This document shows positions 2,446 through 55,095 of a stretch of DNA of 60,678 bases, piece by piece (the stretch's first letter is position 1; each line of letters starts with the position of its first letter). The DNA is from an uncultured Lachnospiraceae bacterium (GTDB lineage: Bacteria; Bacillota; Clostridia; Christensenellales; UBA1242), in NCBI GenBank assembly GCA_964521165.1, contig CAZFRA010000004.1:1-60678 (forward strand), given 5' to 3'. The notes under the pieces are model-generated. The model saw only the letters and a program-made list of their open reading frames with translations. It ran no database searches and was not told where the DNA came from. The position numbers and the translations under genes are program-made.

Positions 2446-2667
2446 GTTTTTTATACAAGTTTTATATGAAAATTCCATAAATTGCATATAGAATCTATTT
2501 TTCGACACAATTGACGAAAAATTGACAGAAATATGACGCCAAAATGGTGTTATATTTTTATTATTGTAAAATTTTGTAAATAAAACCTTAAAAAATGTGG
2601 CACAATGATTTGACTATAACTTTTTTTGATTTTATAATCACTTTTGTTTTTTGCAAAAGGAGATTAT

Positions 2668-3189
2668 ATGAAAGAAAATTTTTGGACGAAAACTTTGCTC
2701 GGAATTTATTCTTATTTGGAAACAATTGCGGATGCTATCGACAAAATAACAATGAAAACAGCGCTCAGTTCTTTCCAATTTTCAAGGTTAAGTTTAGAGA
2801 AAAATAATGTTTTAACAATTTCCAACAAACTGATTAATTTATCCGAAAGAAAAGTGACTTTGATAAATCTCAAACTTTTGATTGAAAAAACGCTTTTATC
2901 TTTACCAAAAAAAGATGCAATTTTGCTTATTCATCGATACATTAATAAAAGTAAAGCGACAGAAATTTCTCAAAAAAGTGGAATGAGTGTTCACTCGGTT
3001 TTTCGAAAGTTACACGCTGTGGAAGATAAGTTTGTTTTTGCTTTGTCAAAACAGGGATACGACAATTTGAAGCTTAAAGATATGCTCAAAAACGAGCACT
3101 GGATTTTGAATTATTATAACGACCTTGCTACAAAAAAAGCGGAAAACTTTTCTTTTTCGGGTGGTGTGGAGAAACTTGTTGCGTTATAA
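2668..3189 (+). CDS. Small helix-turn-helix protein (sigma-70 region 4-like). Candidate phage-type late regulator or small terminase subunit.
   Basis: LPKKDAILLIHRYINKSKATEISQKSGMSVHSVFRKLHAVEDKF resembles a region-4 HTH. ATG at 2668 has the SD aaaggag 7 nt upstream. Confidence 0.45.
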   Translation: MKENFWTKTLLGIYSYLETIADAIDKITMKTALSSFQFSRLSLEKNNVLTISNKLINLSERKVTLINLKLLIEKTLLSLPKKDAILLIHRYINKSKATEISQKSGMSVHSVFRKLHAVEDKFVFALSKQGYDNLKLKDMLKNEHWILNYYNDLATKKAENFSFSGGVEKLVAL

Positions 3190-3951
3190 GTCTTTTTCAT
3201 CAAATTCAAAATAATCGCCATACTGAATTTTTCGTATACCTTTTTTCTCCACCTTTTGCTTTTTCGTTTTTGAAGGTTTGATAAGAAAAAACAAAATAAA
3301 TGCACTTGGAACAGCAATGGCAATAATCAACAAAATCTTTGTGCCGGTGGAAAGAGCGGCAAACTCTTCACCATTAGTGGTGGCTGTGAACACTTCTTCG
3401 CTTATTTCAGTAAAGCTTTCAGTGTTTATGATGATTGTTGGTTCTTTGTTTACCACACCAGAATAGATATATCCTTGATAAGTCACTCCATTAATAACTG
3501 TGCTACAAAAATACCACGTGCTAACATTTTCTTTCATCATTTCTCCGTCAATTGCACCATAATAATTTAGCGTTTGATTTTCTTCAAAAGTCACAACAAC
3601 ATTAGACGAAACAGTTGGTTGTTCATATAGTTCATAACTTGTGTAATTGACAAAAGTGGTATTGAAATATGGAGTGCTTGGTGTTCCAGACATTAAGGTC
3701 ACATCACTCTTCAAAACATAACCTTCAATATCTTTATAAACCGCTTGATAAAACACATCATTTTCCACGCCTAAAATTTGCACAAAATATGAGTATGGTA
3801 AGATAAAAAGCTGAGAGGATGTGTCTGCGTTTTGGTAAAAATACGCGCTCTGTGTTTTCACCTTGCCAAAATATGCGCTTTCCGCATAGGCGATATTCGG
3901 AAAACTTGCAAAAAAGAGAAATAAAGCCAAAAAAATATATATTTTTTTCAT
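3184..3951 (-). CDS. Secreted, C-terminally membrane-anchored protein with an SH3b-like domain
   Basis: Signal peptide MKKIYIFLALFLFFASFPNIAYA; SH3b-like segment (YFYQNAD...IEGYVLKSDV); C-terminal TM helix followed by a Lys-rich tail. Confidence 0.6.
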   Translation of the reverse strand: MKKIYIFLALFLFFASFPNIAYAESAYFGKVKTQSAYFYQNADTSSQLFILPYSYFVQILGVENDVFYQAVYKDIEGYVLKSDVTLMSGTPSTPYFNTTFVNYTSYELYEQPTVSSNVVVTFEENQTLNYYGAIDGEMMKENVSTWYFCSTVINGVTYQGYIYSGVVNKEPTIIINTESFTEISEEVFTATTNGEEFAALSTGTKILLIIAIAVPSAFILFFLIKPSKTKKQKVEKKGIRKIQYGDYFEFDEKDL

Positions 3952-4047
3952 ATTCTCATTTTAATTCTTTTCATATTTTTTCTAAAGAAGAATTTTGTCA
4001 AAAAAATTGTTTATTTATATCATTTTGTATTTTATGGAGAATTTTTT

Positions 4048-5466
4048 ATGAAGGAAATTATTGAAAACATAAAAAAAATTGATTTAGAACTTGAAAAACG
4101 CAAGAATTTTTCTGTTTTTTTATATAATCAAGGAGAAATTGTCCACAAAAAACAACTTGCATTTCATAAATGTACAAAGCGTAATCGCTGGGTTTTTGGT
4201 GGAAATCGTTCGGGCAAAACGGAATGCGGAGCGGTGGAAGTGGTCTATCTCGCACTCGGAATACATCCATACAAAAAGAACAAACTGACGGAAGGATGGG
4301 TGGTTTCTCTTTCAAGACAGGTACAAAGAGATGTTGCGCAAAAGAAAATCTTGCAATACCTTCCAAAACATTACATTGAAAAAATTGTTATGCTTTCCGG
4401 CAATCAAGGAAGTTTTGAAAGTGGAGTTATTGATTTTATCGTTGTTAAAAGTGAAGTTGGTGGGTTAAGTCGAATTGGGTTTCGCACTTGCGATCAAGGT
4501 CGAGAAAAATTTCAAGGGGCGAGTCTTGATTATGTTTGGTTTGACGAAGAACCACCCTTCGACATTTATCAAGAGTGTCGAATGCGCGTTTTAGACAAAA
4601 GTGGAGAAATTTTTGGCACGATGACACCGCTCAAAGGTTTAACTTGGGTCTATTATCAAATCTATCTCAATGAAAACAACGATGAAGAAGTTTGGTATGA
4701 ACAAATGGAGTGGGCAGACAATCCATATCTTCCGCAAAAGGAAGTGGAAAATATGACGAAAAATATGTCGAGTGAAGAGATTGATACTCGGCGATACGGA
4801 AAATTCCGCTCAACAAGCGGGTTGGTTTATCCAGAATTTGACGAAAATGTCAATGTCATCGAGCCATTTGATGTGCCGAAAGAGTGGCAGGATATGATTT
4901 CTATTGACCCGGGACTTCATAATCCACTTTCTGCGCATTTTTATTGCGTTGATTTTGACGGTAATGTCTATGTGGTTGCCGAGCATTATGAAGCCGAAAA
5001 AGATGTCACATATCACGCCACAAAAATCAAAGAAATTGCTGAAAAATTGGATTGGAAGAAAAATAGTGGTGGCAAATTGACGGCACTTATTGACCCTGCT
5101 GCCAATCAGAAAACGCTTTCAAGCGCCAAAACAGTGGTGGAACTTTTTAACGAAAATGATATTGTTGTTAACACAAAAGTCAACAAAGATATGTTTTCTG
5201 GAATTGCCACCGTCAAGGCGTATCTTAAAAATGCCGAAAATCGAAGTCGACTTTTCATCTTCAAAAATTGTGTTAATCTCATAAGGGAGATTAAGTCGTA
5301 TTGGTGGGGCGACGGCGACAATCCTATCAAAAAAGACGACCACGCACTTGACGAACTTCGCTACTACCTTATGACCAAACCAAAAAACACCTTTCACACA
5401 AAAAAGACGACCCTACAAAAAGAGAAAGAAAGGTTGGCAAAAAGATTAAAATTACGAAATACTTGA
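4048..5466 (+). CDS. Phage terminase large subunit-like ATPase/nuclease (orphan)
   Basis: Walker A GGNRSGKTE, Walker B LDYVWFDEEPP, RNase H-like nuclease motifs MISIDPG and KKDDHALDELRYY. 472 aa. Confidence 0.8.
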   Translation: MKEIIENIKKIDLELEKRKNFSVFLYNQGEIVHKKQLAFHKCTKRNRWVFGGNRSGKTECGAVEVVYLALGIHPYKKNKLTEGWVVSLSRQVQRDVAQKKILQYLPKHYIEKIVMLSGNQGSFESGVIDFIVVKSEVGGLSRIGFRTCDQGREKFQGASLDYVWFDEEPPFDIYQECRMRVLDKSGEIFGTMTPLKGLTWVYYQIYLNENNDEEVWYEQMEWADNPYLPQKEVENMTKNMSSEEIDTRRYGKFRSTSGLVYPEFDENVNVIEPFDVPKEWQDMISIDPGLHNPLSAHFYCVDFDGNVYVVAEHYEAEKDVTYHATKIKEIAEKLDWKKNSGGKLTALIDPAANQKTLSSAKTVVELFNENDIVVNTKVNKDMFSGIATVKAYLKNAENRSRLFIFKNCVNLIREIKSYWWGDGDNPIKKDDHALDELRYYLMTKPKNTFHTKKTTLQKEKERLAKRLKLRNT

Positions 5467-5603
5467 AAGATAAATAAAAATAATAAAAAATGTAGAAAAA
5501 AATGAAAAAAATAAAAAATTATTAAAATAATTCATAAATATTTTGCAAATATGTTTGGAAAAATATTATAAATTATGATAAATTAAATTATGGAGAGATA
5601 AAT

Positions 5604-7958
5604 ATGAAAAAATCTTTCTCATTATTAAGTTTAATTCTCGTTTTTCCGCTTTTTATTTGTGGAATGTTTTTTATTTTGAATTTTTCTTACACACCGTCCT
5701 TTGCTTCGGCGGATACACAAACTGTTGAGATAGGCACTGCAGAGGAATTTGTAGATTTTGTAAATAATTACGACGCTAGCAGTCAAAATACCAACATTGT
5801 TTTAACTTCAAATATCAACCTTCAAGGGCAAACTTTGACAAGCACAATTGGAACATCGGACTATGCTTTCCAAGGCACTTTCAACGGTCAAGGCTATTCC
5901 ATTTCTAACATCACTTTTGAAATTCAAAATCAAAGCGGTAATTTATATGTAGGCATTTTTGGTAAAACTTCTGGTGCGACGATAAAGAATTTACAAATTT
6001 CTGGAAGTTATAATATCAGCATTAACGAATCGACATATTCGTATATCGGCTTGCTTGTCGGAAATGCCGATAACAACACCACAATTGACAAATGTCTTGT
6101 CACTGCCACGCTCTCTTCGATAAACTTTCTTGATAGTAACACCTTCAAAAATGTCTTTATAGGTGGAATTGTTGGTGATATGCAAGGCAATTCTTCAATA
6201 ACAAATTCCATTTCTCGTGCACAACTTACAAATGGAATTGAGTTTGGCAGCAATAATTATTCCTATATTTCAGCCATCGGTGCTGTTGTGGGATATTTGG
6301 ATGCATCCTCTCTTCTTTTCACGATAAGTCAAGCATCAATCACAGTGGCTGTGAGTGATACTTATTCTGGCAGTGTCTATGTCGGCGGAATTGCAGGCTA
6401 CATCGTACAATCCAGTTCGCGAATTATTAACGCAGTAACAGAAACCACATTAAATGTTGACACAAACGCTACTGTGGGAATTGTTGGTGGATATATTTCG
6501 AATAACTCACCAGAAGAAGGCAATCTTTCTTCAATAATCTATTATTACACATCTTCATATCAAACTTTTGGTCAAAATAAAAGTGGTAGTTCATATGAAA
6601 TTTACTCCGTATCTTCTACCATCCAGAATTATTCCAGTGTGGAAGAATATTTCACTGACAAACAAAACTTGTGGAATGCAGTAGTGGGCGACAAGTGGGA
6701 TTTTTCAAATATTTGGACAACACTCAATTCTAACATAAATTTGCAACCATTTATCGGAGACTTTACTTTTTCGGTGCAGTTTACAAGTTTGAACATAGGT
6801 ACAAGTCAGTTAGGTGTTTTGGATGTGGTATATGATTTTGAGTCGGGTTATCGTTATGATAACACAGCAAGTTTTACATTTAAGTTTAGCACCTCAAACG
6901 AATATGTGAAGAACTATTATCAACTTTCCAATCTCAATCTTGGAAACACGGTGGTTGGCACTTTTATATATAATGAAGCTGACGATTCATATTCTTTATT
7001 GACAGCATCGGGCTATGATAGAATTTCTTTAACGAAAAACACTTCTGACGATACATATACCGTCACAATTTCCGGCGTGACGGATAACTATGACGGTACT
7101 TATTCCATAACCATTTCAGCGGTGCAATTCACTGGTGTTTTCACTTATCGACTTTATGATGATGGGAATATAGTGGGAGAAGATGAAAAAAGTGAAGCTT
7201 TTGTTTATATCACAGACAGTCAAAATACTAGGACGCGTGAAGTTTCGATAAGTTATTTCACATACAACTATGAAACATCGGTCACAACTCAACAAATTTC
7301 CACTTCGCTTTATGCTTTCACAGGTTGGTATCTTGTTGTTGAAGATGGCGAAGATATTGAAATTACCACATTAAGAACACTGGAAATAACTTTCGGTGAA
7401 GGCTATTTCATTGATGATTTTGAAGTATATGCGCGATACGATTCTGACGCGTGCAATCTTATTTTCAGTATTGACGACGGCGTGCAGATGATTATTCTTG
7501 GAAGCGAACAATATTATGTGGAAGAAACAAATGTTACCATTCCAATCTTCAAACAACTCACTCAACTTCGTATGAGTGTTTATATCAAAGAAAATTATAT
7601 TTTTGATGTCAATGAATTTATGGATCTTTTGAACACATACAAAATAGACCAGTCGGCGACTGATTTTTGTTCGCTCGTTTCGGAAACTGTCACGGAAGAT
7701 GGGTTGACAGTTTATGAATTTAGTTTGAATATGACAAACTTGGATTCTCAATTTAGTGATGTTTTCACAATAACCTTCACAACAACATATGACAACAGCG
7801 ATAACAACACGCTTATTTGGATTATTGTTGGCTCAATTGCCGGCGCTCTTCTTCTTGCTGGTCTTATCGTTTTGATTATCTTTTTGGTTAGACGCCGTGG
7901 CAGTGGTGGCGGTGGCGGAAAAATTCGCACATCTTTCAAAAAAGGAATGTATTACTGA
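5604..7958 (+). CDS. Large cell-surface protein with GLUG-type repeats, an N-terminal signal peptide and a C-terminal TM anchor
   Basis: Signal peptide ending FASA|D. Repeated G-x-(I/V)GG(I/L)(V/A)G motifs (YVGIFGKTSG, IGLLVGNADN, IGGIVGDMQG, VGGIAGYIVQ, VGIVGGYISN). C-terminal TM helix followed by RRRGSGGGGGK. Confidence 0.7.
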   Translation: MKKSFSLLSLILVFPLFICGMFFILNFSYTPSFASADTQTVEIGTAEEFVDFVNNYDASSQNTNIVLTSNINLQGQTLTSTIGTSDYAFQGTFNGQGYSISNITFEIQNQSGNLYVGIFGKTSGATIKNLQISGSYNISINESTYSYIGLLVGNADNNTTIDKCLVTATLSSINFLDSNTFKNVFIGGIVGDMQGNSSITNSISRAQLTNGIEFGSNNYSYISAIGAVVGYLDASSLLFTISQASITVAVSDTYSGSVYVGGIAGYIVQSSSRIINAVTETTLNVDTNATVGIVGGYISNNSPEEGNLSSIIYYYTSSYQTFGQNKSGSSYEIYSVSSTIQNYSSVEEYFTDKQNLWNAVVGDKWDFSNIWTTLNSNINLQPFIGDFTFSVQFTSLNIGTSQLGVLDVVYDFESGYRYDNTASFTFKFSTSNEYVKNYYQLSNLNLGNTVVGTFIYNEADDSYSLLTASGYDRISLTKNTSDDTYTVTISGVTDNYDGTYSITISAVQFTGVFTYRLYDDGNIVGEDEKSEAFVYITDSQNTRTREVSISYFTYNYETSVTTQQISTSLYAFTGWYLVVEDGEDIEITTLRTLEITFGEGYFIDDFEVYARYDSDACNLIFSIDDGVQMIILGSEQYYVEETNVTIPIFKQLTQLRMSVYIKENYIFDVNEFMDLLNTYKIDQSATDFCSLVSETVTEDGLTVYEFSLNMTNLDSQFSDVFTITFTTTYDNSDNNTLIWIIVGSIAGALLLAGLIVLIIFLVRRRGSGGGGGKIRTSFKKGMYY

Positions 7959-8120: not shown

Positions 8121-9545
8121 ATGAACAAAATAAATGTGGAAAAAGAAATAGAAAAACTCAAAAAAGAACTCCATTTTTCTTTTGATGTTGCTGACAGAAT
8201 TTTGAAAAAAGATAATGTCACAATTGGTTTTATTTATCTTAAAAGTTTTACGGATAATCTCATTTTTTCTTCTGCTATATATGAACCAGTTGTGAATTCA
8301 AATGTATTTTCCTTTTCTGATATTAAAAATTTTGTTCGGTCAAATGATATAAAAGAGATTGAAAAAAGAGAAGTTATTGAAAACATATTGAAAGGCGCTG
8401 TCATCATTTTTCTCGACAACAGCGAAAAATACTTAGCGGTGGATATTCAAAAATTCAACACTCGTTCACCGTCCGAACCACCAACAACGCCGGTAATCCA
8501 AGGTCCGCGCGAAGGTTTCACCGAAGATATCAAAACAAATCTTGGGCTTTTGCGCAAGCATTTTTATTCCAAAGATTTGGTTTTAAAAAGTTTAACGGTT
8601 GGCAGGCAGACAAAAACGCAAATTGTGATTGCTTATCTTGCCGGCATTGCCGACACAAAAATTGTGAAACAAATTGAGAAAAAACTCAAAAAAATCGATG
8701 TTGATGGTGTGGTGGACAGTTACTATCTCATTCCTTTTTTGTCCAACCGACCGAACTCTCTTTTCAAGCAGGTCGGAAACACGGAAAAACCAGATATCGT
8801 TACCGCCAAACTTTTAGAAGGAAGGGTGGCAATTTTGGTGGATAACACACCAATCGTTTTGACTATACCTTTCGTTTTATTAGAAGAACTTCAAAACACG
8901 AACGATTATTACACCAATTATCTTTATTCCACTTTGTTGAGATTTATAAGAGTAATCGGTGGACTTCTTGCTGTGCTTGGACCAGGGATTTACATCGCAC
9001 TTCAACTTTTTCATTACAACATTATGCCACTAAAATATTTAATAACAATTGCTGACAGCACGCAGCAGATTCCATTCACGCCGTTTATTGAAATTCTCTT
9101 CATATCTCTTCTTTTCCAAATTTTGTATGAAGTGAGTTTAAGACTGCCGAGTTATTTGGGGCTTGCAACTTCAATCGTTGGCGCACTTATCCTTGGCGAC
9201 ACTGGTGTTAAGGCGGGGCTAATCTCGCCACCTGCCGTTATTGTTGTGGCGATTGCAAAAATTGCGTTATACACCATTCCAGAACAAGCGCCGCAAATCA
9301 ATGTTTTACAGTTTGTTTTCTTACTTGTCGGTGCGTCGCTGGGGCTTTTAGGGCTTGTGGGTGGATTTATTTATGTCATCTTGTATTTGAATGGCATAGA
9401 AAACTTTGGAACGCCATATCTTGCCCCATTTTCTCCATTTATTTTGAAGGATAATAAAGACGGACTAATTCGTGTACCTTGGACGTCAATGCACAAAAGA
9501 CCATATTCATACAGTGTAATTGACCGTGAAAAAGTTGGTGAATAA
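8121..9545 (+). CDS. Spore germination receptor, A subunit (GerA/GerKA family)
   Basis: Family-typical VIQGPREGFTEDIKTNLGLLRK and a C-terminal multi-TM region. First gene of an A-B-C operon. Confidence 0.9.
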   Translation: MNKINVEKEIEKLKKELHFSFDVADRILKKDNVTIGFIYLKSFTDNLIFSSAIYEPVVNSNVFSFSDIKNFVRSNDIKEIEKREVIENILKGAVIIFLDNSEKYLAVDIQKFNTRSPSEPPTTPVIQGPREGFTEDIKTNLGLLRKHFYSKDLVLKSLTVGRQTKTQIVIAYLAGIADTKIVKQIEKKLKKIDVDGVVDSYYLIPFLSNRPNSLFKQVGNTEKPDIVTAKLLEGRVAILVDNTPIVLTIPFVLLEELQNTNDYYTNYLYSTLLRFIRVIGGLLAVLGPGIYIALQLFHYNIMPLKYLITIADSTQQIPFTPFIEILFISLLFQILYEVSLRLPSYLGLATSIVGALILGDTGVKAGLISPPAVIVVAIAKIALYTIPEQAPQINVLQFVFLLVGASLGLLGLVGGFIYVILYLNGIENFGTPYLAPFSPFILKDNKDGLIRVPWTSMHKRPYSYSVIDREKVGE

Positions 9546-10636
9546 TGACGAGAGATAGGAGTATAAACGTTTGGCAAGCGGGTATAATGATTTTTTTCAT
9601 TATTTTCGCAAACAAGGTACTTTTGTTGCCTTCGCTTTTTTATATCGATGCCAGCGTGGAAGGTATTTTTTGTTATTTTCTTCTTTTCGCATTGGAAATT
9701 GGACTTATTTTTTTGTTCATAATACTCAAAAAGAAGTTCCCAAACGAGTCTTTTGCCGATTTAATCAAGGCAAAATTTGGTGTGGTGACACTAAAAATAA
9801 TTTATCTTCTTCTTATTGGCTTCTTCTTTTGTAAATTGGTGTTAATTTACAATGTGACTTACATATTTTTTAAGGATTTGATATATAAAGGAAATGATAC
9901 CATACTTTTTCTTGTTTGTTTTTTGCCAGTTGTCAACTACATCGCTTTTATCGATTTGCGTGTTTTTGGACGCACTTGTCAACTCTTTTTTCCGTTAATC
10001 TTTTTGATTACCCTTTTTTGTGTGGCGATTTCTTTTATTGGAATAACTTCAACACCACTTTTCTTTCAATCAAGTGTGGGTGATGTTTTGTTTTCCAGTC
10101 TAAAACACATTTCTTCCTTTGGTGATGTGATATTTTTGTTTATCTTTATGGATAAAATTGAGTTAAAGAATGGGGATGGTAAAAAGTTATATTTATTTGC
10201 ACTTTTAGCGATTTTAATGATAATTTTGGTGGTGACTGCGTTTTATTTTTCTTACACTTTCACTTCTTTTATGCATCAATATGGCATTTTTGAAGTTCTA
10301 GGCAACATCAAAAACTATGGCGGACTTGGCAGAATTGATATGATTGCTGTTATTTTGGTGATTTTTTTAACATATTTCCAAATGGGTATATATTTGAAGT
10401 GTTTTTCCAACAGTTTTCAAATTTTTTTGCCAAAATTGGACAGAAAATATTCACTCATTACTTTCGACCTTATTTTCATCTTTGTCGTTGAACTTGTCAT
10501 TCGCAATCTTGAACGGACAATTGTATATGGCGAAAGTGTACTGCCGTATCTTTCAATAATTTCCTTTGTTATCATTCCAACTTGTGTTATCATCTTTCTT
10601 ATCATCAAAAAGCGGGGTGAAAAGTGGAGAAAATAA
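9545..10636 (+). CDS. Spore germination receptor, B subunit (GerAB-type permease, APC-like)
   Basis: About 10 predicted TM helices, 363 aa. The start overlaps the A subunit stop (TAATG). Confidence 0.85.
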   Translation: MTRDRSINVWQAGIMIFFIIFANKVLLLPSLFYIDASVEGIFCYFLLFALEIGLIFLFIILKKKFPNESFADLIKAKFGVVTLKIIYLLLIGFFFCKLVLIYNVTYIFFKDLIYKGNDTILFLVCFLPVVNYIAFIDLRVFGRTCQLFFPLIFLITLFCVAISFIGITSTPLFFQSSVGDVLFSSLKHISSFGDVIFLFIFMDKIELKNGDGKKLYLFALLAILMIILVVTAFYFSYTFTSFMHQYGIFEVLGNIKNYGGLGRIDMIAVILVIFLTYFQMGIYLKCFSNSFQIFLPKLDRKYSLITFDLIFIFVVELVIRNLERTIVYGESVLPYLSIISFVIIPTCVIIFLIIKKRGEKWRK

Positions 10637-11856
10637 AAAAATGTTTCAAACTTATCACAAAATATCCAATGATGATTATCCTTCTTCTCATTGTCCTTTT
10701 TTATGGCTCCATCGCGCTTGGAAAAGTGGCAGAGATTGATGAATACGCCGTTATTACTGCCATCGGTCTTGATAAGGCAGAAGACGACATAGTCGAACTT
10801 TCGCTTTTAACGTTTGTGCCAATTGTTGCGCAGAACTTTGCTGAACAATATGAAGTTGTAAAAGCGTCCGGTGAAACGGTGGCAGAAGCGATTGATTTTG
10901 CCGGACTGTATCTTGGGCGTAAAGTGGGGCTTTCTCATGTGGAAATGGTGGTGATAAACGAGCAGTTTTTCGAAGAAGATCTCTCAACCGAAATTGACTA
11001 TTTAAGGCGTGACACTAACCTTTCTCTTTCCACAACAATAATTTGTACAGACGCGAAAGCAGTGGATTTTCTGATGACCGTTAAAGACTTCAACACTTCA
11101 AGTTCGGTGAAGGCGGATGAGCTTTTGCAGTATAACGAAAAATATGTTTACGCCAGTGAAAGCACATTCGATACGTTTTATAAAGGTATATTCAGTCCGA
11201 CCAAAAGTGAGATTGTGTCTTTCATAACTCTAACATCTGAAGAAGGCGACGGCATATCCATTTCAGCCTCGACAAGCGAGTCGAGCGAAGGGGGAGATAC
11301 AGGGAGCGGGCAGAAAAAGAAAATTTTAAACGACGGGCAAGCTGTTCTATGTAAAAAAGGCAAAAAAGTGGCGAAACTATCTAAAGAAGAGATGAAATGC
11401 TTAAACCTTCTAAAAGGTAATTTCAACACAGGCTCAATCACCATCGAAGATTTTTCGGACGACACATTCCAAAATGCAAGGTTAACTTTTGAACTTTTTG
11501 ACAATAAACTCAATATGCAAGTAAGATTCGAAAATGGTGTGCCAGTTGTTTATATGAATTCCAAAATTTTTATTAAGCTTACCGAAGTGGATACCGACGA
11601 TATCTTGGTGGAAAATGTCGAATTCAAAAGCCTATCCGATAAAGCGATTAAGGCACTGGAAGGCAAAGTGAAGAGTTTAATGAAGCAGGGGATGGATATT
11701 TTGCGAGAAAATAAAACCGATATAATCGACTTATATACCACCTTAAATAACTCAAACCACAAAAAGATGCAAGAGTTTCTGAATAGGCTTGAAAATAAGG
11801 ATGAGTTTTTGAGTTATGTCGTTTTCAAGGTTTCTCCGCAAATATATTCAAATTAA
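10624..11856 (+). CDS. Spore germination receptor, C subunit (Ger(x)C family), with no canonical lipobox
   Basis: Conserved IDEYAVITAIGLDK start of the GerxC domain; length is typical. GTG start with SD ggggtga overlaps the B subunit gene. The N-terminal hydrophobic helix ends GSIALGK, with no Cys. Confidence 0.8.
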   Translation: MEKIKKCFKLITKYPMMIILLLIVLFYGSIALGKVAEIDEYAVITAIGLDKAEDDIVELSLLTFVPIVAQNFAEQYEVVKASGETVAEAIDFAGLYLGRKVGLSHVEMVVINEQFFEEDLSTEIDYLRRDTNLSLSTTIICTDAKAVDFLMTVKDFNTSSSVKADELLQYNEKYVYASESTFDTFYKGIFSPTKSEIVSFITLTSEEGDGISISASTSESSEGGDTGSGQKKKILNDGQAVLCKKGKKVAKLSKEEMKCLNLLKGNFNTGSITIEDFSDDTFQNARLTFELFDNKLNMQVRFENGVPVVYMNSKIFIKLTEVDTDDILVENVEFKSLSDKAIKALEGKVKSLMKQGMDILRENKTDIIDLYTTLNNSNHKKMQEFLNRLENKDEFLSYVVFKVSPQIYSN

Positions 11857-50370: not shown

Positions 50371-51273
50371 ATGCTTAATAAAATTTTACCAGAAAAAATT
50401 TGGAGTATTATCGATAGAAAGGTCAATTTAAAGGCAGTGAACGAGATAAGGTTTCGCGTGGACAAGCCTATTATTGTTTGCGTCAGCGGAAAAAACTATT
50501 TTTTGAGCGAAAATGGCGCAACAAGCAATCTCACATCGGCAATTTTTGCCACAAAAATCATTGTGGAAGATATCATCTTTCGCGCAAGCGAGTGTTCAAT
50601 TTATTCTGTTAATGAGCAGATAAAAAGGGGCTTTATTGTCACCGAAAACGGCATAAGGATTGGTATTGGTGGAAATATTGTCGAAGAAAATGGCGTGATA
50701 AAAACAATGACCAACTTTCAGTCTTGCAACATACGCATTCCGCATAATGTCAAAAACTGCTCACTCTCGGCATTTCCATATATAGTTACCGAAAATGGTG
50801 TGGAAAACACTTTGGTTATTTCGCCGGCGGGGTGCGGAAAAACGACCTTTTTGAAAGACTTTGTCAATCAACTTGGTGAAAGGAATTTACCGCTCAATGT
50901 CTTACTTTTGGACGAACGAGGCGAACTTGATTGTAAACTTTCGTCGAACTTTTACGACAAAATTGCCTTTGCCACGAAAAAGGTAGGCTTTGAGAACGGT
51001 ATACGCTCGCTTGCGCCAGACATTATTGTGACCGACGAAGTTGGACAAGAAGAAGATATCGACGCCATTCTTTATGCTTCAACTTCTGGCGTCAAGGTGT
51101 TGGCGACGACGCACGCGGAAAGTCTTGACACTTTTTGTCACAAACCACTTTTTCAAAAACTCATCAAAGAAAAAACTTTTAAAAGGTATGTTCTTTTGTC
51201 CAAGCGCAATGGACCCGGAACTTTTGAAGGGATATATAATGAGAATTTTTCGCGACTTTTTAGCAAATTTTAA
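50371..51273 (+). CDS. spoIIIAA: Stage III sporulation protein AA (ATPase)
   Basis: Walker A SPAGCGKTT; Walker B-like IIVTDEVG. First gene of an 8-gene operon. Confidence 0.9.
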   Translation: MLNKILPEKIWSIIDRKVNLKAVNEIRFRVDKPIIVCVSGKNYFLSENGATSNLTSAIFATKIIVEDIIFRASECSIYSVNEQIKRGFIVTENGIRIGIGGNIVEENGVIKTMTNFQSCNIRIPHNVKNCSLSAFPYIVTENGVENTLVISPAGCGKTTFLKDFVNQLGERNLPLNVLLLDERGELDCKLSSNFYDKIAFATKKVGFENGIRSLAPDIIVTDEVGQEEDIDAILYASTSGVKVLATTHAESLDTFCHKPLFQKLIKEKTFKRYVLLSKRNGPGTFEGIYNENFSRLFSKF

Positions 51274-51285
51274 AAGGAGTGTGAA

Positions 51286-51780
51286 ATGAAGTATCTTTTT
51301 ATCATAATCATTTTTTGCTTGTGCCTTTTTGTTGGATATGTTATCTATTCTAAATATAATAAACGCAAGAAATTTTTTTCAAGTTTAATTCTTCTGGCGG
51401 AGAAACTTTCGGTGGAAATCAATTTCTCGCGCGAAAGATTGAAAATTTTGATGGAAAATTTTGACGAAGGAACACGGAAAAATCTGCTTGGTATCGACGA
51501 GAGTTTTATTGACTATCTCGACAAAAAAAGTGAACTTTCTTCTGAAAATATCTTTAAAAAAGCGTCATGCTTAAAACAAGACGAGAAAGATTTTATCTTA
51601 CTTTTTCTTAAAACACTTGGGAGAAGCGATGTGGAAAATCAAACAAAAGAAATTTCTTCCTTTGTGCAAAGGTTTAATGAGAAAAAGGAAGAAACAGAAA
51701 AAGACCACAAAAAATATGGAGCGCTTTCTATTAAACTTTCGATTGTGGCAGGACTATTTTTTGCTATTTTAATAATTTAG
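51286..51780 (+). CDS. spoIIIAB: Stage III sporulation protein AB
   Basis: Size, N- and C-terminal TM helices, and operon position. Confidence 0.85.
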   Translation: MKYLFIIIIFCLCLFVGYVIYSKYNKRKKFFSSLILLAEKLSVEINFSRERLKILMENFDEGTRKNLLGIDESFIDYLDKKSELSSENIFKKASCLKQDEKDFILLFLKTLGRSDVENQTKEISSFVQRFNEKKEETEKDHKKYGALSIKLSIVAGLFFAILII

Positions 51781-51789
51781 GGAGTTTTT

Positions 51790-51984
51790 ATGGATGTTGA
51801 CATCATATTCAAAATTGCGGCGATTGGAATTTTGACCGCTGTTATAAGTCAAATTCTCAAAAACAGCGGGAAGGAAGACATATCCACATTGGCAACACTT
51901 GCGGGCGTTGTTCTTGTGCTTTTAATGGTGATAAATATGATTTCCGACCTTTTTGAAGCCATTCGAACTATATTCAATTTTTGA
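51790..51984 (+). CDS. spoIIIAC: Stage III sporulation protein AC
   Basis: 64 aa, two TM helices, typical IFKIAAIGILTAVISQILK. Confidence 0.9.
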   Translation: MDVDIIFKIAAIGILTAVISQILKNSGKEDISTLATLAGVVLVLLMVINMISDLFEAIRTIFNF

Positions 51985-51998
51985 AGAAGGGAGTTGTT

Positions 51999-52391
51999 AT
52001 GGACTCGATTTATCGAATTATTGCCATTGCGTTAATAACTTGCATTGCCACGCTTATCGTCAAACCAGTTCGTCCAGATTTCGCCGTTTTCCTTTCAATT
52101 GTCGGTGGAATTATTCTTCTTTTTATGCTCATATCCTATCTCTCCAGCATATTTGATGTGTTCAACGAGATATTTCAAATAACAAATGTCAACTCTTCGC
52201 TCTATGCAATTATTTTCAAAATTATAGGCGTCGGCTACTTGATTGAATTCACTGCTAGCATTTGTAGTGACACGGGTAACCAAAGTTTGGGCGATAAAGT
52301 CCTTCTGGGTGGCAAGATTATCATTCTTGTTATGGCACTGCCAATCATAACAAGTATACTTGAAATTGTTATGGAGTTATTGCCACAATGA
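51999..52391 (+). CDS. spoIIIAD: Stage III sporulation protein AD
   Basis: About 130 aa, polytopic. ATG at 51999 with SD gaaggga. Operon position. Confidence 0.85.
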   Translation: MDSIYRIIAIALITCIATLIVKPVRPDFAVFLSIVGGIILLFMLISYLSSIFDVFNEIFQITNVNSSLYAIIFKIIGVGYLIEFTASICSDTGNQSLGDKVLLGGKIIILVMALPIITSILEIVMELLPQ

Positions 52392-53599
52392 AGAAATGTA
52401 AGCAGATAAACCTTTTTATCGTTTTCATCATTTTTGTTGCTTCTTTTTTTGGCAGTTTCACTTTGGATGGATATGTTCTTAACACGCCATATGTCAGGGC
52501 GGAAAGCGAAGTCGAAGATATCGAACTTGAATTGGAAGAAGAAATTGAAAACCAACTCAACAATTTGGACTTCAGCGATTTGGAAACATATCTTGATAAT
52601 TTGAAAGATAACACCTTCTTTTCTGGTGGATTTGAAGCGAAGGTGGAGAGTTTGATAAATGGTGAATATCTCGAAAGCGAAACTTTTTTGGGTGCGATTT
52701 TATCACTTCTTTGGGATGGGCTTTTGTCGTATTTGCCGATAATTGCCAGCATAATTGCCATTGCCATTTTGGGTGGAATGGTGTCGAATTTAAAACCGCA
52801 GATAAACGGCAAGTCGATTGGAAACATAATTCACTTTGTGACTTATGGCGTGGTGATAGTCTTTGTTGGCGGAATATTAGTTAAACTCATTTCTCTGACA
52901 TCATCCACGCTCACGAGTTTAAAAAATTTAATGGATGCAATTTTTCCGGTCTTACTCACACTTTTGACGGCGGTAGGCGGAACTGTTTCGGTGAGTTTAT
53001 ATCAACCGGCTATTGCAATGCTTGGAAATGTTTTCATCTATCTAATAACTTATTTTCTTATGCCAATTTTCATTTTTACGGTGATATTCTCTATTGTCGG
53101 TAATCTTTCGAACAACGTTAAACTTGATAAGTTTGTCGCATTTTTGCAAGGCACTTTCAAGTGGACAATTGGACTTTTGTTTACCATTTTTCTCGGCTTT
53201 ATCACAATTCAAGGGATATCGGCAAGTGCGGTGGATGGACTTTCAATTCGCACGGCGAAATACACAATTCGAAGTTACATTCCAATCGTTGGTGGATATG
53301 TTTCGGACGGACTTTCGATTGTGCTTGCGTCAAGTATGCTCATCAAAAACGCAGTTGGAACGGCAGGACTTCTTCTCATTCTTTTTGCCATAATTTCGCC
53401 GATACTAAATCTTGTTTTGTTTATGCTGTCGTTGAAGTTTATGGCAGGAATTATCGAGCCTGTTGGCGACAAAAAGATTGCAAATTTTGTGAGTGACATC
53501 TCCAAAAGTATGACAATGCTAATTGCGCTTATTGTTGCCGTGGCGTTTATGTATATGTTAATGACAGGGCTTATAATGTGTAGCGCCAATTTAATATAA
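52388..53599 (+). CDS. spoIIIAE: Stage III sporulation protein AE
   Basis: About 400 aa, signal peptide plus multiple TM helices, operon position. Confidence 0.88.
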   Translation: MKKCKQINLFIVFIIFVASFFGSFTLDGYVLNTPYVRAESEVEDIELELEEEIENQLNNLDFSDLETYLDNLKDNTFFSGGFEAKVESLINGEYLESETFLGAILSLLWDGLLSYLPIIASIIAIAILGGMVSNLKPQINGKSIGNIIHFVTYGVVIVFVGGILVKLISLTSSTLTSLKNLMDAIFPVLLTLLTAVGGTVSVSLYQPAIAMLGNVFIYLITYFLMPIFIFTVIFSIVGNLSNNVKLDKFVAFLQGTFKWTIGLLFTIFLGFITIQGISASAVDGLSIRTAKYTIRSYIPIVGGYVSDGLSIVLASSMLIKNAVGTAGLLLILFAIISPILNLVLFMLSLKFMAGIIEPVGDKKIANFVSDISKSMTMLIALIVAVAFMYMLMTGLIMCSANLI

Positions 53600-53610
53600 G
53601 GGGGTGTGAT

Positions 53611-54087
53611 ATGTCAGAATGGCTTCTTTCGATTGCTGGAATAATTTTGCTATCGGTGCTTTGCGAATTTATTTTGCCAGAAGGTCAGATAAATCGCTAT
53701 ATCCGCGGAATATTTTCCTTTATCACAATTTTTGTTATTATTGCGCCGCTTCCAAGTCTTTTAAATAAAGAAATGGACTTTTCCAATTTTTTGGCGTCGT
53801 ATAAGATTGAACTTCAAGACGATTATCTCTATCAAATCAACCTATCCAAACTCAACGCTGTTCAATCGGATATCATAAACAAAATTAGCGCACAAGGTGT
53901 GGAAAATTTTAAAATAACATATTCTGCGGATGTCGAAAATTTGGAAGTTTATGAAATAACTGTCGATTTACGCGATGTGTCATTTTCTGGAAGTATAAAG
54001 AATACACAAGAGTTAAAGGAGTGTGTGGAAGATTTGGTTTTGAATGTGGCTTACTTTAAAAACGCTTCGATAATCTTTTTGGAATAG
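53611..54087 (+). CDS. spoIIIAF: Stage III sporulation protein AF
   Basis: Two N-terminal TM helices plus a soluble domain; operon position. Confidence 0.82.
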   Translation: MSEWLLSIAGIILLSVLCEFILPEGQINRYIRGIFSFITIFVIIAPLPSLLNKEMDFSNFLASYKIELQDDYLYQINLSKLNAVQSDIINKISAQGVENFKITYSADVENLEVYEITVDLRDVSFSGSIKNTQELKECVEDLVLNVAYFKNASIIFLE

Positions 54088-54099
54088 GAGAGTGAAAAA

Positions 54100-54609
54100 A
54101 TGAAAATGATAAAAGATTTTTTTGAGAAAATAAAGAAGGTTAAACATTTTGAAATATATCTTGCTGTGTTTATCGGTCTTATTGTTTGCGTTTGTTATTT
54201 TGCCTTTTTTGTGGACAAAACTACGGATGACACAATAACTGAAAATTCGACACAAGAATATTCATCCACACAGGAATACGTGGACATTCTTGAGAATAAA
54301 TTAAGTAATGTATTATCAAAAATTTCCGGAGTTGGAGAAGTGAGTGTTTTGATAACGCTTGAGAGTGGCTTTTCTTATGAATACGCCTTTGATACGGAAA
54401 CAATAACATCTGGCACAAACGAAACAACAACGGAAATGTTGGTCATAATTGACGGCGAACCAGTCGTTGTGAAGGAAATCTATCCTGTGATAAAGGGGGT
54501 GGTGATTGTTGCAGAAGGTAGCGAGAATTTTAGCATAAAAATGAATATTTTGGATGCAGTCACAACAATTCTTGGAATTGATGAGAGTAACATAACAATT
54601 CTTTCATAA
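54100..54609 (+). CDS. spoIIIAG: Stage III sporulation protein AG
   Basis: N-terminal TM helix and a ring-building-motif-like C-terminus (VSVLITLESG...IKGVVIVAEG). Confidence 0.85.
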   Translation: MKMIKDFFEKIKKVKHFEIYLAVFIGLIVCVCYFAFFVDKTTDDTITENSTQEYSSTQEYVDILENKLSNVLSKISGVGEVSVLITLESGFSYEYAFDTETITSGTNETTTEMLVIIDGEPVVVKEIYPVIKGVVIVAEGSENFSIKMNILDAVTTILGIDESNITILS

Positions 54610-54627
54610 TTTTAAAAGGAGATTAAA

Positions 54628-55095
54628 ATGAAAAAAAGAACAAAAATTATTATCTTAACTCTTATGATAGTTTTGCTTGGTGTGACAGGTTATCTCAACA
54701 TTGTTTTAAATAACAGCATAACCGAACCAACCACAACAACCACCACAACAACATCATATTTTGTTTCTTATCGTAACGACCGAGAAACCACAAGAGACCA
54801 ACAAATTCTTTACTATGATGCCATAATTGAAAATGAAAATTCTTCGGAAGAAGCAGTGAAGAATGCGGAAGAAGCAAAACTTGCTCTTATTGCTGAAATG
54901 AACGAAGAACTCACAGTTGAAGGGCTTATCAAGGCGCTTGGCTTTACCGATTGCATCGTTTCCATAGGAACAAAGGTGAATGTTGTTGTGGAATGTGAAG
55001 AGTTGACAAAAGCAGAAGTTGCTCAAATTCAAACAATTGTTGTGGAACAACTTGGCGTGGAAGTTAAAAATATTGTGATAATTCCTGTTGTTTAG
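54628..55095 (+). CDS. spoIIIAH: Stage III sporulation protein AH
   Basis: N-terminal TM helix, Thr-rich linker, SpoIIIAH-like C-terminal domain; operon position. Confidence 0.82.
   Translation: MKKRTKIIILTLMIVLLGVTGYLNIVLNNSITEPTTTTTTTTSYFVSYRNDRETTRDQQILYYDAIIENENSSEEAVKNAEEAKLALIAEMNEELTVEGLIKALGFTDCIVSIGTKVNVVVECEELTKAEVAQIQTIVVEQLGVEVKNIVIIPVV

Follow-up and report, generated by a model that had tools for sequence, protein, structure and literature searches.

The window analysed here is a stretch of 60,678 nucleotides from the 1.04-Mb genome of an uncultured Lachnospiraceae bacterium (Christensenellales). A gene for a phage-type large terminase (TerL) lies among core genes near its beginning, and the locus contains the following features:

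2598..2638, plus strand: putative promoter region of the regulator gene, with a TGGCAC box, 6 nt, then TTGACT-N17-TATAAT
2668..3189, plus strand: 173-aa regulator with a sigma-70 region-4-like HTH; the ATG at 2668 is preceded by AAAGGAG
3184..3951, minus strand: 255-aa type-I membrane protein (SH3) with signal peptide, SH3b-like ectodomain and C-terminal TM helix
3995..4023, plus strand: putative sigma-70-type promoter-like site before TerL, TTGTCA-N17-TATCAT (10/12 in a consensus scan)
4048..5466, plus strand: TerL, large terminase, with packaging ATPase (residues ~49-200) and RNase-H-like headful nuclease (residues ~285-442)
5604..7958, plus strand: 784-aa GLUG/beta-helix-type surface protein with signal peptide, C-terminal TM anchor and a weak Pfam match to Glug (0.0031)

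The sequence shows the ORF at 4048-5466 to be a genuine large terminase gene that is intact. It encodes 472 aa from an ATG start without internal stops, and the opposite strand is riddled with stops. The protein matched Terminase_6N (1.3e-14, residues 51-267) and Terminase_6C (2.2e-5, residues 285-442) of Pfam, both above the curated cut-off, and phrog_2 'terminase large subunit' of PHROG (5.8e-31). It has the composition expected of a large terminase: an N-terminal ASCE ATPase with a Walker A of the GxxxxGK[T/S] form, a Walker B and a catalytic glutamate, and a C-terminal RNase-H/RuvC-like nuclease with three acidic metal ligands. All four ATPase and nuclease motifs quoted in the initial annotation were found in the translation: Walker A GGNRSGKTE (residues 51-59), Walker B LDYVWFDEEPP (residues 160-170) and the nuclease motifs MISIDPG (residues 283-289) and KKDDHALDELRYY (residues 428-440).

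Among 30 aligned orthologues, drawn from 9 families, 122 of the 472 positions were invariant. They include G51, G52, N53, R54, G56 and K57 of Walker A, D161 and the W164-F165-D166-E167-E168-P169 stretch with Walker B and the acidic pair, T191-L195, and the nuclease residues D287, D349, D431, H432 and D435. Mutation of catalytic residues, which the initial annotation had named as an observation that would count against a retained function, was thus not seen in these orthologues. All three stretches of the nuclease have aligned counterparts in the phage D6E terminase structure 5oe8 (E 4e-7), and this alignment places the probable metal ligands among D287, D349 and D431/D435. The gene is present in one copy in the genome, and a TTTGTC box upstream of it is conserved across the genus.

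Neighbours of the terminase gene

The description of the neighbourhood in the initial annotation (an HTH protein, a divergent SH3b membrane protein, a 784-aa GLUG protein, rarA, a germinant receptor and ftsH) matches the Pfam annotation, in which rarA, the gerA operon and ftsH are the other neighbours. Pfam scans of the remaining ORFs gave only housekeeping and sporulation genes, including the spoIIIA operon and tRNA synthetases. The 60-kb window therefore holds no further phage structural, lysis or integrase gene, in agreement with the earlier statement that portal, capsid, tail, lysis and integrase genes are absent from it. An 81-aa ORF at 3819-4064 was regarded as spurious since it has no family match and lies partly over the SH3 gene, on the opposite strand.

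The 173-aa regulator is probably the transcription activator of the element. Its gene is single-copy, syntenic in 11/11 genus loci and also found upstream of TerL in other families; the TTGACT/17/TATAAT elements at 2610-2638 match 11 of 12 positions in a consensus scan. The protein matched Sigma70_r4_2 of Pfam under the cut-off (1e-4) and the regulator/sigma families phrog_36 and phrog_1740 of PHROG, and it gave weak sigma matches only in NCBIfam. Approximately 62-65 central residues of its AF2 model (pLDDT 84.2) superpose on region 4 of ECF sigma factors (local superposition, rmsd 1.3, TMt 0.77-0.83), and a Foldseek search of the model against PDB gave no match at E<=1e-3. The name of sigma factor was withheld because Foldseek returned only local region-4 superpositions.

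The SH3 membrane protein belongs to the ancestral set of the element. Its single-copy gene is syntenic in 11/11 genus loci, a 14-member HMM of the protein matches a divergent gene in 5/9 other-family loci (E 9.5e-29 to 2.3e-13), and the gene is present in two of the three viral-collection contigs that carry the cluster described below. The protein matched SH3_3 of Pfam (1.4e-6) and, on inspection of the sequence, ends in a conserved acidic/aromatic tail, GDYFEFDExDL. Through its cytoplasmic tail it might tether or control the regulator.

The GLUG protein is probably a bystander outside the particle system, belonging to a multi-copy surface-protein family of the genome. Its gene is syntenic in 11/11 genus loci with an identity of only 23-43 %, has its own strongly conserved promoter-like box, and is missing from the contiguous clusters found in other families and on viral-collection contigs. 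Elsewhere in the genome, on other contigs, there are 8 paralogous matches to the N-terminal domain of the protein. A role as tail fibre or receptor-binding protein was dismissed on the basis of the signal peptide and membrane anchor, the genome-wide paralogues and the absence from contiguous clusters.

The cognate module and its separation from TerL

The initial annotation had described TerL as an orphan, which is correct for the 60-kb window but not for the genome, where a cognate module is located on contig C12. The same annotation had proposed to look through the genome for the portal and capsid that would go with TerL in a dispersed, GTA-like system, and this search was positive: tblastn with cluster proteins of other families gave collinear matches at C12:18444-24943, corresponding to a head, neck and nozzle module with holins. 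The module comprises genes for a TerS-like protein, a P22/SU10-type portal, a scaffold-like protein, a podovirus-type major capsid protein, adaptor-like proteins, a tail nozzle and two holins. It is wedged between housekeeping genes and polA, with the TerS-to-holin part at C12:18.4-25.5 kb. The genome thus has the portal and the capsid that should accompany a functional large terminase, both on C12.

The portal matched P22_portal (8.6e-23), the PHROG portal family (1.4e-38) and SU10_portal. The capsid protein matched the PHROG major head protein (1.5e-45), capsid_maj_Podo of NCBIfam (1.1e-71; 241.6 bits with a cut-off of 80) and SU10_MCP-type clusters, and the holins belong to the BhlA and phage holin families. 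The model of a 501-aa protein (pLDDT 85.9) has a fold like podovirus tail nozzle/hub proteins, with matches to Pa223 9nwi_Y (E 3e-19, TMq 0.70) and also to VP1, GP4, SU10, P22 gp10 and Sf6 gp8. One orthologue gave a weak, adaptor-like match to SU10_adaptor.

The C12 module is intact in every genus genome examined. All 11 genes from the TerS-like gene to a 105-aa membrane gene (reference G000) were matched in 7/8 genus loci, and the eighth, L047, retained 10/11, the 105-aa membrane gene having no match. In one genome of the genus (G003) the whole system lies in one stretch between rarA and polA; elsewhere in the genus TerL and the portal gene are 6 kb to 150 kb apart or on separate contigs. In other families TerL is found inside one contiguous cluster of ~11 kb, directly upstream of TerS and portal. 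This cluster contains the sigma-4-like regulator, the divergent SH3 membrane protein, TerL, a short TerS-like protein, a small ORF, the portal, a scaffold-like protein, the major capsid protein, two neck/adaptor-like proteins, the tail nozzle and a holin. The split of the system into two loci in the genus is secondary.

The initial annotation had taken a complete prophage in relatives as the mark of a simple remnant. The relatives do carry TerL within a contiguous phage-like cluster, but this is not a complete prophage, since it is a head module of ~11 kb without integrase, replication or repressor genes and with housekeeping flanks, as observed in three other-family loci. In the present genome no integrase is encoded on C4 or C12, and the three Phage_integrase matches lie on C7, C29 and C17. 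No replication or repressor gene was seen among the Pfam/PHROG-recognisable genes of the flanks. A search of the surroundings of both loci for endolysin, tail fibre, receptor-binding protein and baseplate genes found none beside either locus; two Amidase_3 genes are located on C10 and C1. In two other-family loci a DUF7934 gene comes after the nozzle gene; it had no match in this genome. A functional prophage would combine an integrase, lysogeny control, replication genes, a complete tail and an endolysin in a single contiguous island, and no such set was found here. The flanking genes, polA and a methyltransferase-RluD pair, agree across species and even families.

Distribution, co-divergence and selection

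TerL was found in 34 and the portal in all 36 of 36 other species of the genus. TerL is full-length without stops in 33 of them, and the 34th carries it in two pieces at contig ends. In the two remaining genomes (94 % and 89 % complete) the portal is present and both TerL and the SH3 gene are missing; no genome among those searched had kept TerL and the SH3 gene and lost the portal and capsid. Outside the genus, 24 other families were sampled, and TerL and the portal both occurred in an identical set of 9 of them. The portal was present, nearly always in single copy, in 137/301 genomes (about 45 %) and 62/143 genera of the order, with a family-structured pattern (16/16, 11/16, 12/16 and 13/16 in families f1, f4, f8 and f11; 0/16 in six families). 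One other-family genome carries two copies, and in 6/137 portal-positive genomes the match is in two pieces, one with an internal TGA. A class-wide search found the portal in only 14 genomes outside the order, with 0/13 to 0/17 in large families. TerL and capsid of isolated phages are each at most 30 % identical to those of the element. Three viral-collection contigs carry the contiguous cluster, and some mobility or misclassification is therefore possible.

The trees of TerL, portal and PolA, which are quick searches with SH-aLRT support only, agree in their three genus clades and in the sister pairs, and 17/26 TerL bipartitions are in common with the PolA tree. The Mantel r among the three proteins was 0.90-0.96 (0/2000 permutations as high; related genomes are not independent samples), and TerL and portal distances correlated with r 0.935-0.95. 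The mean p-distance in the genus was 0.296 for TerL, 0.392 for portal and 0.413 for PolA. Of the 8 pairs compared, 6 had a finite dS, and for these NG86 dN/dS of TerL was 0.025-0.066; dN was 0.06-0.19. The ratios are rough because dS is near saturation (1.8-3.1), 2/8 pairs being saturated. The nozzle is likewise under strong constraint, as are TerL and the portal.

The view of the initial annotation that TerL has been retained against neutral decay is borne out by its occurrence in 34/36 genus species, its low dN/dS and p-distance and its invariant catalytic residues. Of the analyses it had proposed, dN/dS indicated purifying selection (~0.03-0.07, with dS near saturation), and the TerL phylogeny agreed with those of PolA and portal.

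The capsid of one subclade has a long stem branch in the tree. Replacement of the gene was considered and rejected, and fast evolution is more likely than import since the subclade stands in the expected sister relation.

Interpretation and comparison with known systems

The reading that is preferred, with a probability of roughly 0.7, makes TerL the motor that packages DNA for a particle system of the gene transfer agent (GTA) type, which derives from a podovirus, has been domesticated, is inherited vertically and was split by rearrangement in the genus. Of the properties of GTAs, the following were found in it: phage-derived structural genes that are vertically inherited and kept by selection, dispersal over loci, and absence of replication, integration and excision genes from the flanks, as far as genes are recognisable by Pfam and PHROG. 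Insertion of the GLUG gene and later rearrangements would have separated the regulator-SH3-TerL part (2.6-5.5 kb of the window) from the TerS-to-holin part (C12:18.4-25.5 kb). The regulator would turn on both loci in a fraction of cells, the portal would be the assembly point of procapsids, and TerL with the TerS-like protein would dock on the portal, where the ATPase would pump DNA in. The RNase-H-like nuclease would cut the DNA once the small head is full, the adaptor and nozzle would close the particle, and the holins would aid its release; the particle would presumably deliver its DNA to recipients. The packaged DNA would most likely be that of the host, because the genes of the system, ~12 kb in all, are themselves dispersed and include none for replication or integration.

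The same domesticated particles might act without gene transfer, in lysis-linked roles such as killing of competitors, DNA release or population control in the manner of PBSX. This is unlikely: the strong constraint on TerL, portal and nozzle is hard to explain if packaging and the DNA exit channel are irrelevant, and there is no tailocin-type sheath or tube, even if the holins are kept beside the structural genes, a tail fibre/receptor-binding protein was not found in the genus and the DUF7934 gene is missing. The option is left open in the discussion of the FpGTA paper (PMC12946183). A still-mobile element that is very common in the order, either a small temperate podovirus or a capsid-forming satellite (cf-PICI-like), is decidedly improbable. 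It could account for the two copies in one genome and the contiguous cluster on viral-collection contigs, and cf-PICIs encode TerS, TerL, portal, capsid and connectors without a tail. However, neither contig carries an integrase, the flanks showed neither replication nor repressor genes, the flanking genes are the same across species and families, the trees are congruent with PolA, and an element whose two halves are both retained at separate loci could not be excised and packaged as a single unit.

The initial annotation had offered two explanations for the lone gene. That it is the last surviving gene of a decayed prophage is contradicted by the full head, neck and nozzle module with holins on C12, intact across the genus genomes examined. 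A decaying remnant in the wider sense, with leftover genes not yet lost, is very improbable as well. The element is small, lacks many phage functions and has broken or missing pieces in a few genomes, but in this genus of ~1-Mb genomes TerL is full-length in 33/36 other species; it is better conserved than PolA, has invariant catalytic residues and has kept dN at 0.06-0.19 while synonymous sites became saturated. The other explanation, a domesticated translocase/nuclease working with the neighbouring envelope proteins independently of a capsid, can hardly be entertained. TerL does adjoin the SH3 gene in all loci and the GLUG gene in the genus; against this, TerL and portal co-occur genome by genome and their distances correlate, the ancestral order has TerL directly upstream of TerS and portal, and the GLUG protein belongs to a paralogous family. 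With the cognate module on C12, a capsid-independent role is not needed.

Several known systems resemble the GTA-type system proposed here. P22/SU10-type podoviruses have in common with it the portal, the capsid family and the nozzle fold (P22 gp10, SU10, Sf6 gp8), but the present element is devoid of tailspike, needle, ejection-protein, replication, lysogeny and endolysin genes. The spore-forming Firmicute Bacillus subtilis has a defective phage-like element, PBSX, whose particles take up host DNA and are set free when the cell lyses. This element, of ~28 kb at one locus and myovirus-like with a contractile tail, acts as a killer particle and does not deliver the DNA that it packages. The present element is, in contrast, podovirus-like, of ~12 kb and split. 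The cf-PICIs are small and supply TerS, TerL, portal, capsid and connectors themselves, though not a full tail; they carry integrase, regulators and replication genes and move horizontally, whereas no integrase on C4 or C12, no replication module and a host-congruent phylogeny in place of horizontal spread were found here. RcGTA of Alphaproteobacteria is siphovirus-like with a long tail, belongs to another phylum and is controlled by CtrA and quorum sensing. As far as compared, it shares only the general TerL, portal and HK97-type families with the present element. RcGTA is likewise a domesticated, vertically inherited head/packaging cluster under purifying selection, dispersed and without replication or integration genes (compare the introduction of PMC12946183).

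Among known systems, FpGTA of Faecalibacterium prausnitzii (Borodovich et al., Nat Commun 2026, PMC12946183) comes closest by analogy in gene content and layout; it is described as the first GTA in a human gut commensal. Both systems are found in Gram-positive gut Clostridia, have a compact TerS, TerL, portal, scaffold and major capsid operon with conserved hypotheticals, show affinities to short-tailed phages, include holins, lack replication genes, are near-ubiquitous within the genus and occupy two distant loci (125 kb apart in one complete genome for FpGTA). They belong to different host orders, and the likeness is one of gene content and layout. The split separates TerL from TerS and portal in the present element and head from tail/lysis operons in FpGTA. 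Of the second FpGTA operon (baseplate, tail fibre, receptor-binding protein, holin, endolysin) only holins were found, and the sigma-4-like regulator and the SH3 membrane protein are fixed parts of the present element, unlike FpGTA as there described. Particles, proteomics and packaged DNA of 8.4-8.9 kb were reported for FpGTA, whereas the present element is known from genes alone.

The same source reports GTA-type packaging and read patterns for Christensenellales taxa (supplement file 3), among them HGM11616 sp900761075 and QANA01 sp019420265, and gives no gene cluster for them; the gene set described here is a concrete one to compare with that report (PMC12946183). GTA particles carry quasi-random host DNA in pieces that are too short for the whole gene set, and these read patterns are the one indirect hint of such packaging here. 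No paper naming the cluster was found in the literature searched on GTAs in Clostridia/Christensenellales, domesticated prophages and FpGTA, PMC12946183 being the only relevant one. A broader proposal, put at slightly under even odds, is that the cluster might be the so-far unnamed genetic basis of GTA-type packaging in Christensenellales gut viromes. It would be a podovirus-derived GTA already present in the ancestor of many families, kept so long that TerL evolves slower than DNA polymerase I, and surviving in ~1-Mb spore-forming genomes despite the break into two loci. It would be run by its own sigma-4-like regulator, with a surface-exposed SH3 protein through which signals from the cell wall could be linked to the production of particles.

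To our knowledge, very few gene transfer agents are known. The present system would be a second, separately recognisable GTA-type lineage beside FpGTA, in about 45 % of the sampled genomes of an order of gut Clostridia, and capsid-mediated export of host DNA would, if the reading is true, be a widespread, ancient and selected trait in these bacteria. That the system has been kept almost universally in the ~1-Mb genomes searched argues for a benefit that outweighs its cost. For annotation, a lone 'terminase family protein' among core genes calls for a genome-wide search before it is labelled a remnant.

The split arrangement is also a natural test case for co-regulation of dispersed GTA loci. 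The TGGCAC-N5/6-TTGAnT-N17-TATAAT layout precedes the TerS operon (C12:18330) as it does the regulator gene, and a promoter box common to the two loci is suggestive only. A sigma-54-type reading of the TGGCAC box was dropped because the downstream element has TTGA in place of TTGC and the spacing differs by one. Two extra genomic matches to the pattern (C10, C8) had no plausible downstream gene. The strict pattern matched just a few regions; in relaxed form it was present in 6/12 regulator-upstream and 6/9 TerS-upstream regions of the genus and gave 45 matches in the whole genome.

The terminase gene and its neighbours

The terminase ORF of the window and the features around it were as follows.

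1489-2445: 318-aa ORF, after rarA
ATG at 2668, behind AAAGGAG: 173-aa regulator
3819-4064, +: 81-aa ORF
4048-5466, +: TerL, ATG start, 472 codons, stop-free
5530-5603: promoter-like region before the GLUG gene

The initial annotation had recognized a terminase large subunit, and this call was confirmed. The ORF was intact, the opposite strand carried no open frame, and the protein matched Pfam Terminase_6N (1.3e-14, residues 51-267) and Terminase_6C (2.2e-5, residues 285-442), both above the curated cut-off, as well as phrog_2 'terminase large subunit' (5.8e-31). Its sequence also matched that of the D6E phage large terminase of known structure (5oe8, E 4e-7), with the three nuclease stretches in register. 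The four motifs reported earlier were all present in the translation. In an alignment of 30 orthologues, 122 of 472 positions were invariant, including Walker A and B, the TMTPL motif, D287, D349, D431, H432 and D435. TerL was present in one copy in the assembly of G000, the genome studied. Pfam annotation agreed with the earlier description of the neighbouring genes and, as claimed, Pfam scans of the window ORFs revealed no further phage gene across the 60 kb; the 47 other non-overlapping ORFs at 14.3-60.7 kb gave housekeeping and sporulation matches only.

For the 173-aa protein only sub-threshold matches to sigma-70 region 4 were obtained. In its structural model (pLDDT 84.2) 62-65 central residues superposed on ECF-sigma region 4 with an rmsd of 1.3, and Foldseek returned no match reaching E 1e-3. 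We describe the protein as a putative sigma-4-like regulator rather than as a sigma factor. Near-consensus sigma-70 type promoter-like sites preceded the regulator gene (TTGACT-17-TATAAT) and TerL (TTGTCA-17-TATCAT). The regulator gene and the TerS operon of contig C12 have in common a TGGCAC box, placed 5-6 nt before the -35 motif; the pattern occurred in 6/12 and 6/9 of the respective orthologous regions and had 45 genome-wide matches at the same looseness, so that it is taken as a lead towards possible co-regulation.

The divergent 255-aa SH3 protein comprises a signal peptide, an ectodomain matching SH3_3, a C-terminal membrane helix and the conserved tail GDYFEFDExDL. An HMM of 14 members found a divergently placed homologue in five of nine loci of other families (E 9.5e-29 to 2.3e-13), and the gene is therefore an ancestral part of the element. 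The 784-aa GLUG protein, encoded 3' of TerL, carries a signal peptide and a membrane anchor and shows 23-43 % identity across the genus; eight paralogous matches to its N-terminal domain lie on other contigs of G000. Its gene was missing from all contiguous clusters described below. It has its own promoter-like box, conserved despite the poorly conserved protein and almost invariant in the orthologous regions of the genus (TGTTTGGAAAAATA ... ATGATAAATT). We regard the GLUG gene as a likely bystander.

The 81-aa ORF shares sequence with the TerL start and, antisense to it, with the 5' end of the SH3 gene; it had no family match in three libraries and is probably no real gene. The 318-aa ORF lies next to rarA also in the four nearest species, and its match to the 2-oxoacid dehydrogenase acyltransferase catalytic domain (4.1e-9) is limited to the final ~55 residues of that domain.

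The head module and the separation of the two loci

In other families of the order, the genes immediately 3' of the TerL orthologue (53-63 % identity) encode a TerS-like piece, a portal of ~620 aa, a protein of ~200 aa, a major head protein of 390 aa, two small proteins and a 'virion structural protein' of ~490 aa; on the 5' side are a regulator and a divergent gene of ~255-285 aa. The G000 assembly (1,039,077 bp, 37 contigs, scored 100 % complete) includes the window as its contig C4. A genome-wide tblastn search of it with the proteins of these clusters identified a collinear module at C12:18444-24943. Its genes, in order, were:

likely GTG start C12:18399, behind GGAGG: TerS-like protein, ~95 aa
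between TerS-like gene and portal: 78-aa ORF
C12:18893-20734: portal, P22_portal 8.6e-23, phrog_156 1.4e-38
after the portal, in scaffold position: 211-aa protein
C12:21394-22572: major capsid protein, phrog_14242 1.5e-45, NCBIfam capsid_maj_Podo 1.1e-71 (241.6 bits, cut-off 80)
after the capsid gene: 106-aa protein, then 186-aa protein with a weak SU10_adaptor match in an orthologue
next: 501-aa protein with a tail nozzle/hub type fold
next: BhlA holin and second holin
next: 105-aa three-helix membrane protein
next: polA

Upstream of the module, within the annotated stretch L041 (C12:9000-28999), lie tRNA-synthetase, methyltransferase, RluD-type, PepF, SDR and ABC-transporter genes. The AlphaFold model of the 501-aa protein (14-sequence alignment, pLDDT 85.9, pTM 0.85) matched best the tail protein 9nwi_Y of Pseudomonas phage Pa223 (E 3.3e-19, TMq 0.70), with further matches to VP1, GP4, SU10, P22 gp10, Sf6 gp8 and T7. 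The annotation of C12 and these fold matches show that G000 has a full set of genes for a small head, neck and nozzle of podovirus type, and holins as well. The description of TerL as an orphan does not hold, since portal, capsid, nozzle and holins are present on C12 in the same genome.

An AT-rich tandem repeat (32 bp, 3.7 copies, 86 % matches; L041:9121-9237 = G000:C12:18120-18236) lies ~95 nt upstream of the TerS-operon promoter. In two other families a DUF7934 protein (305-339 aa) is encoded 3' of the nozzle gene (L036:430-1347, L038:403-1422); it had no match in G000, and the genus may have lost it as a component of the tail tip or of a fibre. One genome of another family has a GmrSD-type restriction endonuclease gene (L036:12336-14438; GmrSD_N 8e-35, GmrSD_C 7e-19) at ~1.4 kb from the cluster's regulator end.

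In G003, a relative of the same genus, one stretch contains rarA, the 318-aa gene, the regulator, SH3, TerL and GLUG genes, two genes inverted with respect to G000, the TerS-like gene, the portal-to-holins genes, the 105-aa gene and polA. The distance from TerL to the portal was ~6-7 kb in G003, G036 and G026, 32-57 kb in G005, G031, G011, G006 and G023, and 140-150 kb in G034 and G008; in others of the genus the two were on different contigs. The regulator-SH3-TerL-GLUG cassette was syntenic in all 11 genus loci, with the rarA flank kept in the four nearest only. All 11 genes from TerS-like to 105-aa were matched in seven of eight genus loci compared (10 in L047, where the 105-aa gene had no match). 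The single stretch in G003, the varying distances and the syntenic cassette indicate that insertion of the GLUG gene 3' of TerL, followed by rearrangements, separated the two halves.

Distribution, inheritance and selection

TerL and the portal were surveyed in 60 relatives, comprising 36 other species of the genus and 24 other families. TerL was found in 34 of the former (64-79 % identity), being full length and stop-free in 33 and, in G001, divided into two stop-free pieces that lie at contig ends, and in nine of the latter (53-63 %). Matches in eleven further genomes, at 25-31 % only, are ordinary prophage terminases. The portal was present in all 36 species of the genus, and the nine other families that had it were exactly those with TerL; it gave no weak matches. 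The two genus genomes devoid of TerL (94 and 89 % complete) also lacked the SH3 gene, so either the cassette was lost or it falls in an assembly gap.

An even draw across the order gave the portal in 137/301 genomes and 62/143 genera in a family-structured pattern: 16/16 in f1, 11/16 in f4, 12/16 in f8, 13/16 in f11, 3/3 in f17, 4/4 in f19 and 0/16 in each of six families. It was nearly always single copy among the 137 positive genomes; the match was in two pieces in six, one with an internal TGA, and one genome had two full copies. Across the class 28/399 genomes were positive, fourteen of them outside the order, including nine in one genus at 39 %. In g213 (f88, another order) every listed genome (G419, G445, G519, G543, G566, G588, G631, G672) had a portal at ~39 % identity (E ~1e-145), which may indicate that a related element is conserved in a second host lineage.

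At least 573 stretches, of 600 candidates listed, were confirmed by capsid alignment against species-representative genomes; the best 80 were records of 'uncultured Clostridia', 'Christensenella sp.', 'Christensenellaceae', 'Candidatus Borkfalkia' and 'Candidatus Onthoplasma'. No isolated phage exceeded 30 % identity to TerL or capsid. The viral-contig collection yielded only three contigs (TerL identity 65-66 %), each with a contiguous cluster and without the GLUG gene; both that reach upstream of TerL carry the regulator and SH3 genes.

PolA identity to G000 was 78 % in the nearest species, 61-64 % in the near clade, 54-60 % in the rest of the genus and 41-46 % in other families. Portal identities followed these values almost exactly and those of TerL exceeded them throughout (79, 68-73, 64-71 and 53-63 %). 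Maximum-likelihood trees of TerL, portal and PolA (21 genus genomes, 8 of other families) all recovered the genus, the same three clades inside it and the groups G000+G030, G028+G014, G005+G010, G003/G036/G026 and G039+G045; G059 paired with G054 in the TerL and PolA trees and with G052 in the portal tree. Distances correlated at r 0.946 (TerL-PolA), 0.961 (portal-PolA) and 0.950 (TerL-portal), and at 0.90-0.935 in the genus alone, with 0/2000 permutations reaching the observed r in any comparison; 17 of 26 TerL bipartitions occurred in the PolA tree. The TerL phylogeny was in this respect congruent with both others. The head module adjoins polA in 11 genus genomes, and a methyltransferase-RluD pair lies near the element in G000 and in one other-family genome.

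TerL dN/dS (Nei-Gojobori) was 0.025-0.066 in the six of eight pairs that gave a finite dS, compared with 0.06-0.17 for PolA, these ratios being rough as dS was 1.8-3.1, near saturation. The mean genus p-distance was 0.296 for TerL, 0.392 for portal and 0.413 for PolA. Selection on TerL, proposed in the initial annotation, was borne out by the low dN/dS, the invariant catalytic residues and a p-distance below that of PolA. These comparisons indicate that the element is inherited vertically with its host and kept by selection.

In one genus subclade (L044-L050; G008, G003, G034, G036, G018, G019, G026) capsid identity to G000 (L041:12395-13573) was only 45-48 %, against 55-61 % in more distant genus clades, while portal (62-66 %) and nozzle (47-57 %) followed the host tree. 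The stem branch measured 0.97 changes per site in the capsid tree vs 0.15 in the portal tree, and the subclade was still sister of the G000 group, which points to accelerated evolution of the capsid in this one lineage. The 2.4-Mb genome G045, of another family, has two full TerL-portal clusters (G045:C1:992338-993759 and G045:C1:2218493-2219911; L033, L034). Both copies group together and with G039 in the TerL and portal trees, so the second would stem from a duplication, or from another acquisition, in that lineage.

Nature of the element

The initial annotation proposed that TerL may be the last surviving gene of a decayed prophage or a domesticated DNA translocase/nuclease acting with the neighbouring envelope proteins. 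Conservation and intactness of TerL across the genus argue against a decaying remnant, and the cognate module is present; domestication is upheld by vertical inheritance and selection. The genome has three Phage_integrase matches, located on C7, C29 and C17 with none on C4 or C12, and two Amidase_3 genes, one on C10 and one on C1; housekeeping genes flank the contiguous cluster in three other families. These locations and flanks argue against both a functional prophage and a capsid-forming satellite. In the preferred reading, to which we assign a probability of about 0.7, TerL drives packaging in a particle system of the gene transfer agent (GTA) kind that derives from a podovirus, is inherited vertically and is split between two loci, and we infer DNA packaging and transfer as its function.

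The sole relevant paper found on GTA-like clusters of Clostridia was PMC12946183. According to its available text, FpGTA of Faecalibacterium consists of a 10.5-kb operon (TerS, TerL, portal, scaffold, capsid, hypothetical proteins) and a 5.5-kb operon (baseplate, fibre, receptor-binding protein, holin, endolysin), 125 kb apart in one complete genome. Its particles are ~40 nm, with 8.4-8.9 kb of packaged DNA, and it is termed the first podovirus-like GTA-like element (PMC12946183). The same text describes GTA-type packaging for Christensenellales taxa, with peaks at ~4.1 and 7.1 kb and at 3.3-10.4 kb, and leaves the gene cluster unnamed (PMC12946183). The element described here shows an architecture and a lifestyle signature of the FpGTA kind in a different host order.

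The 1.04-Mb G000 genome, with its 100 % completeness score, retains a gerA-type germinant receptor operon and a spoIIIA operon (window 8121-11856 and 50371-55095), and is predicted to belong to a very small spore-former.
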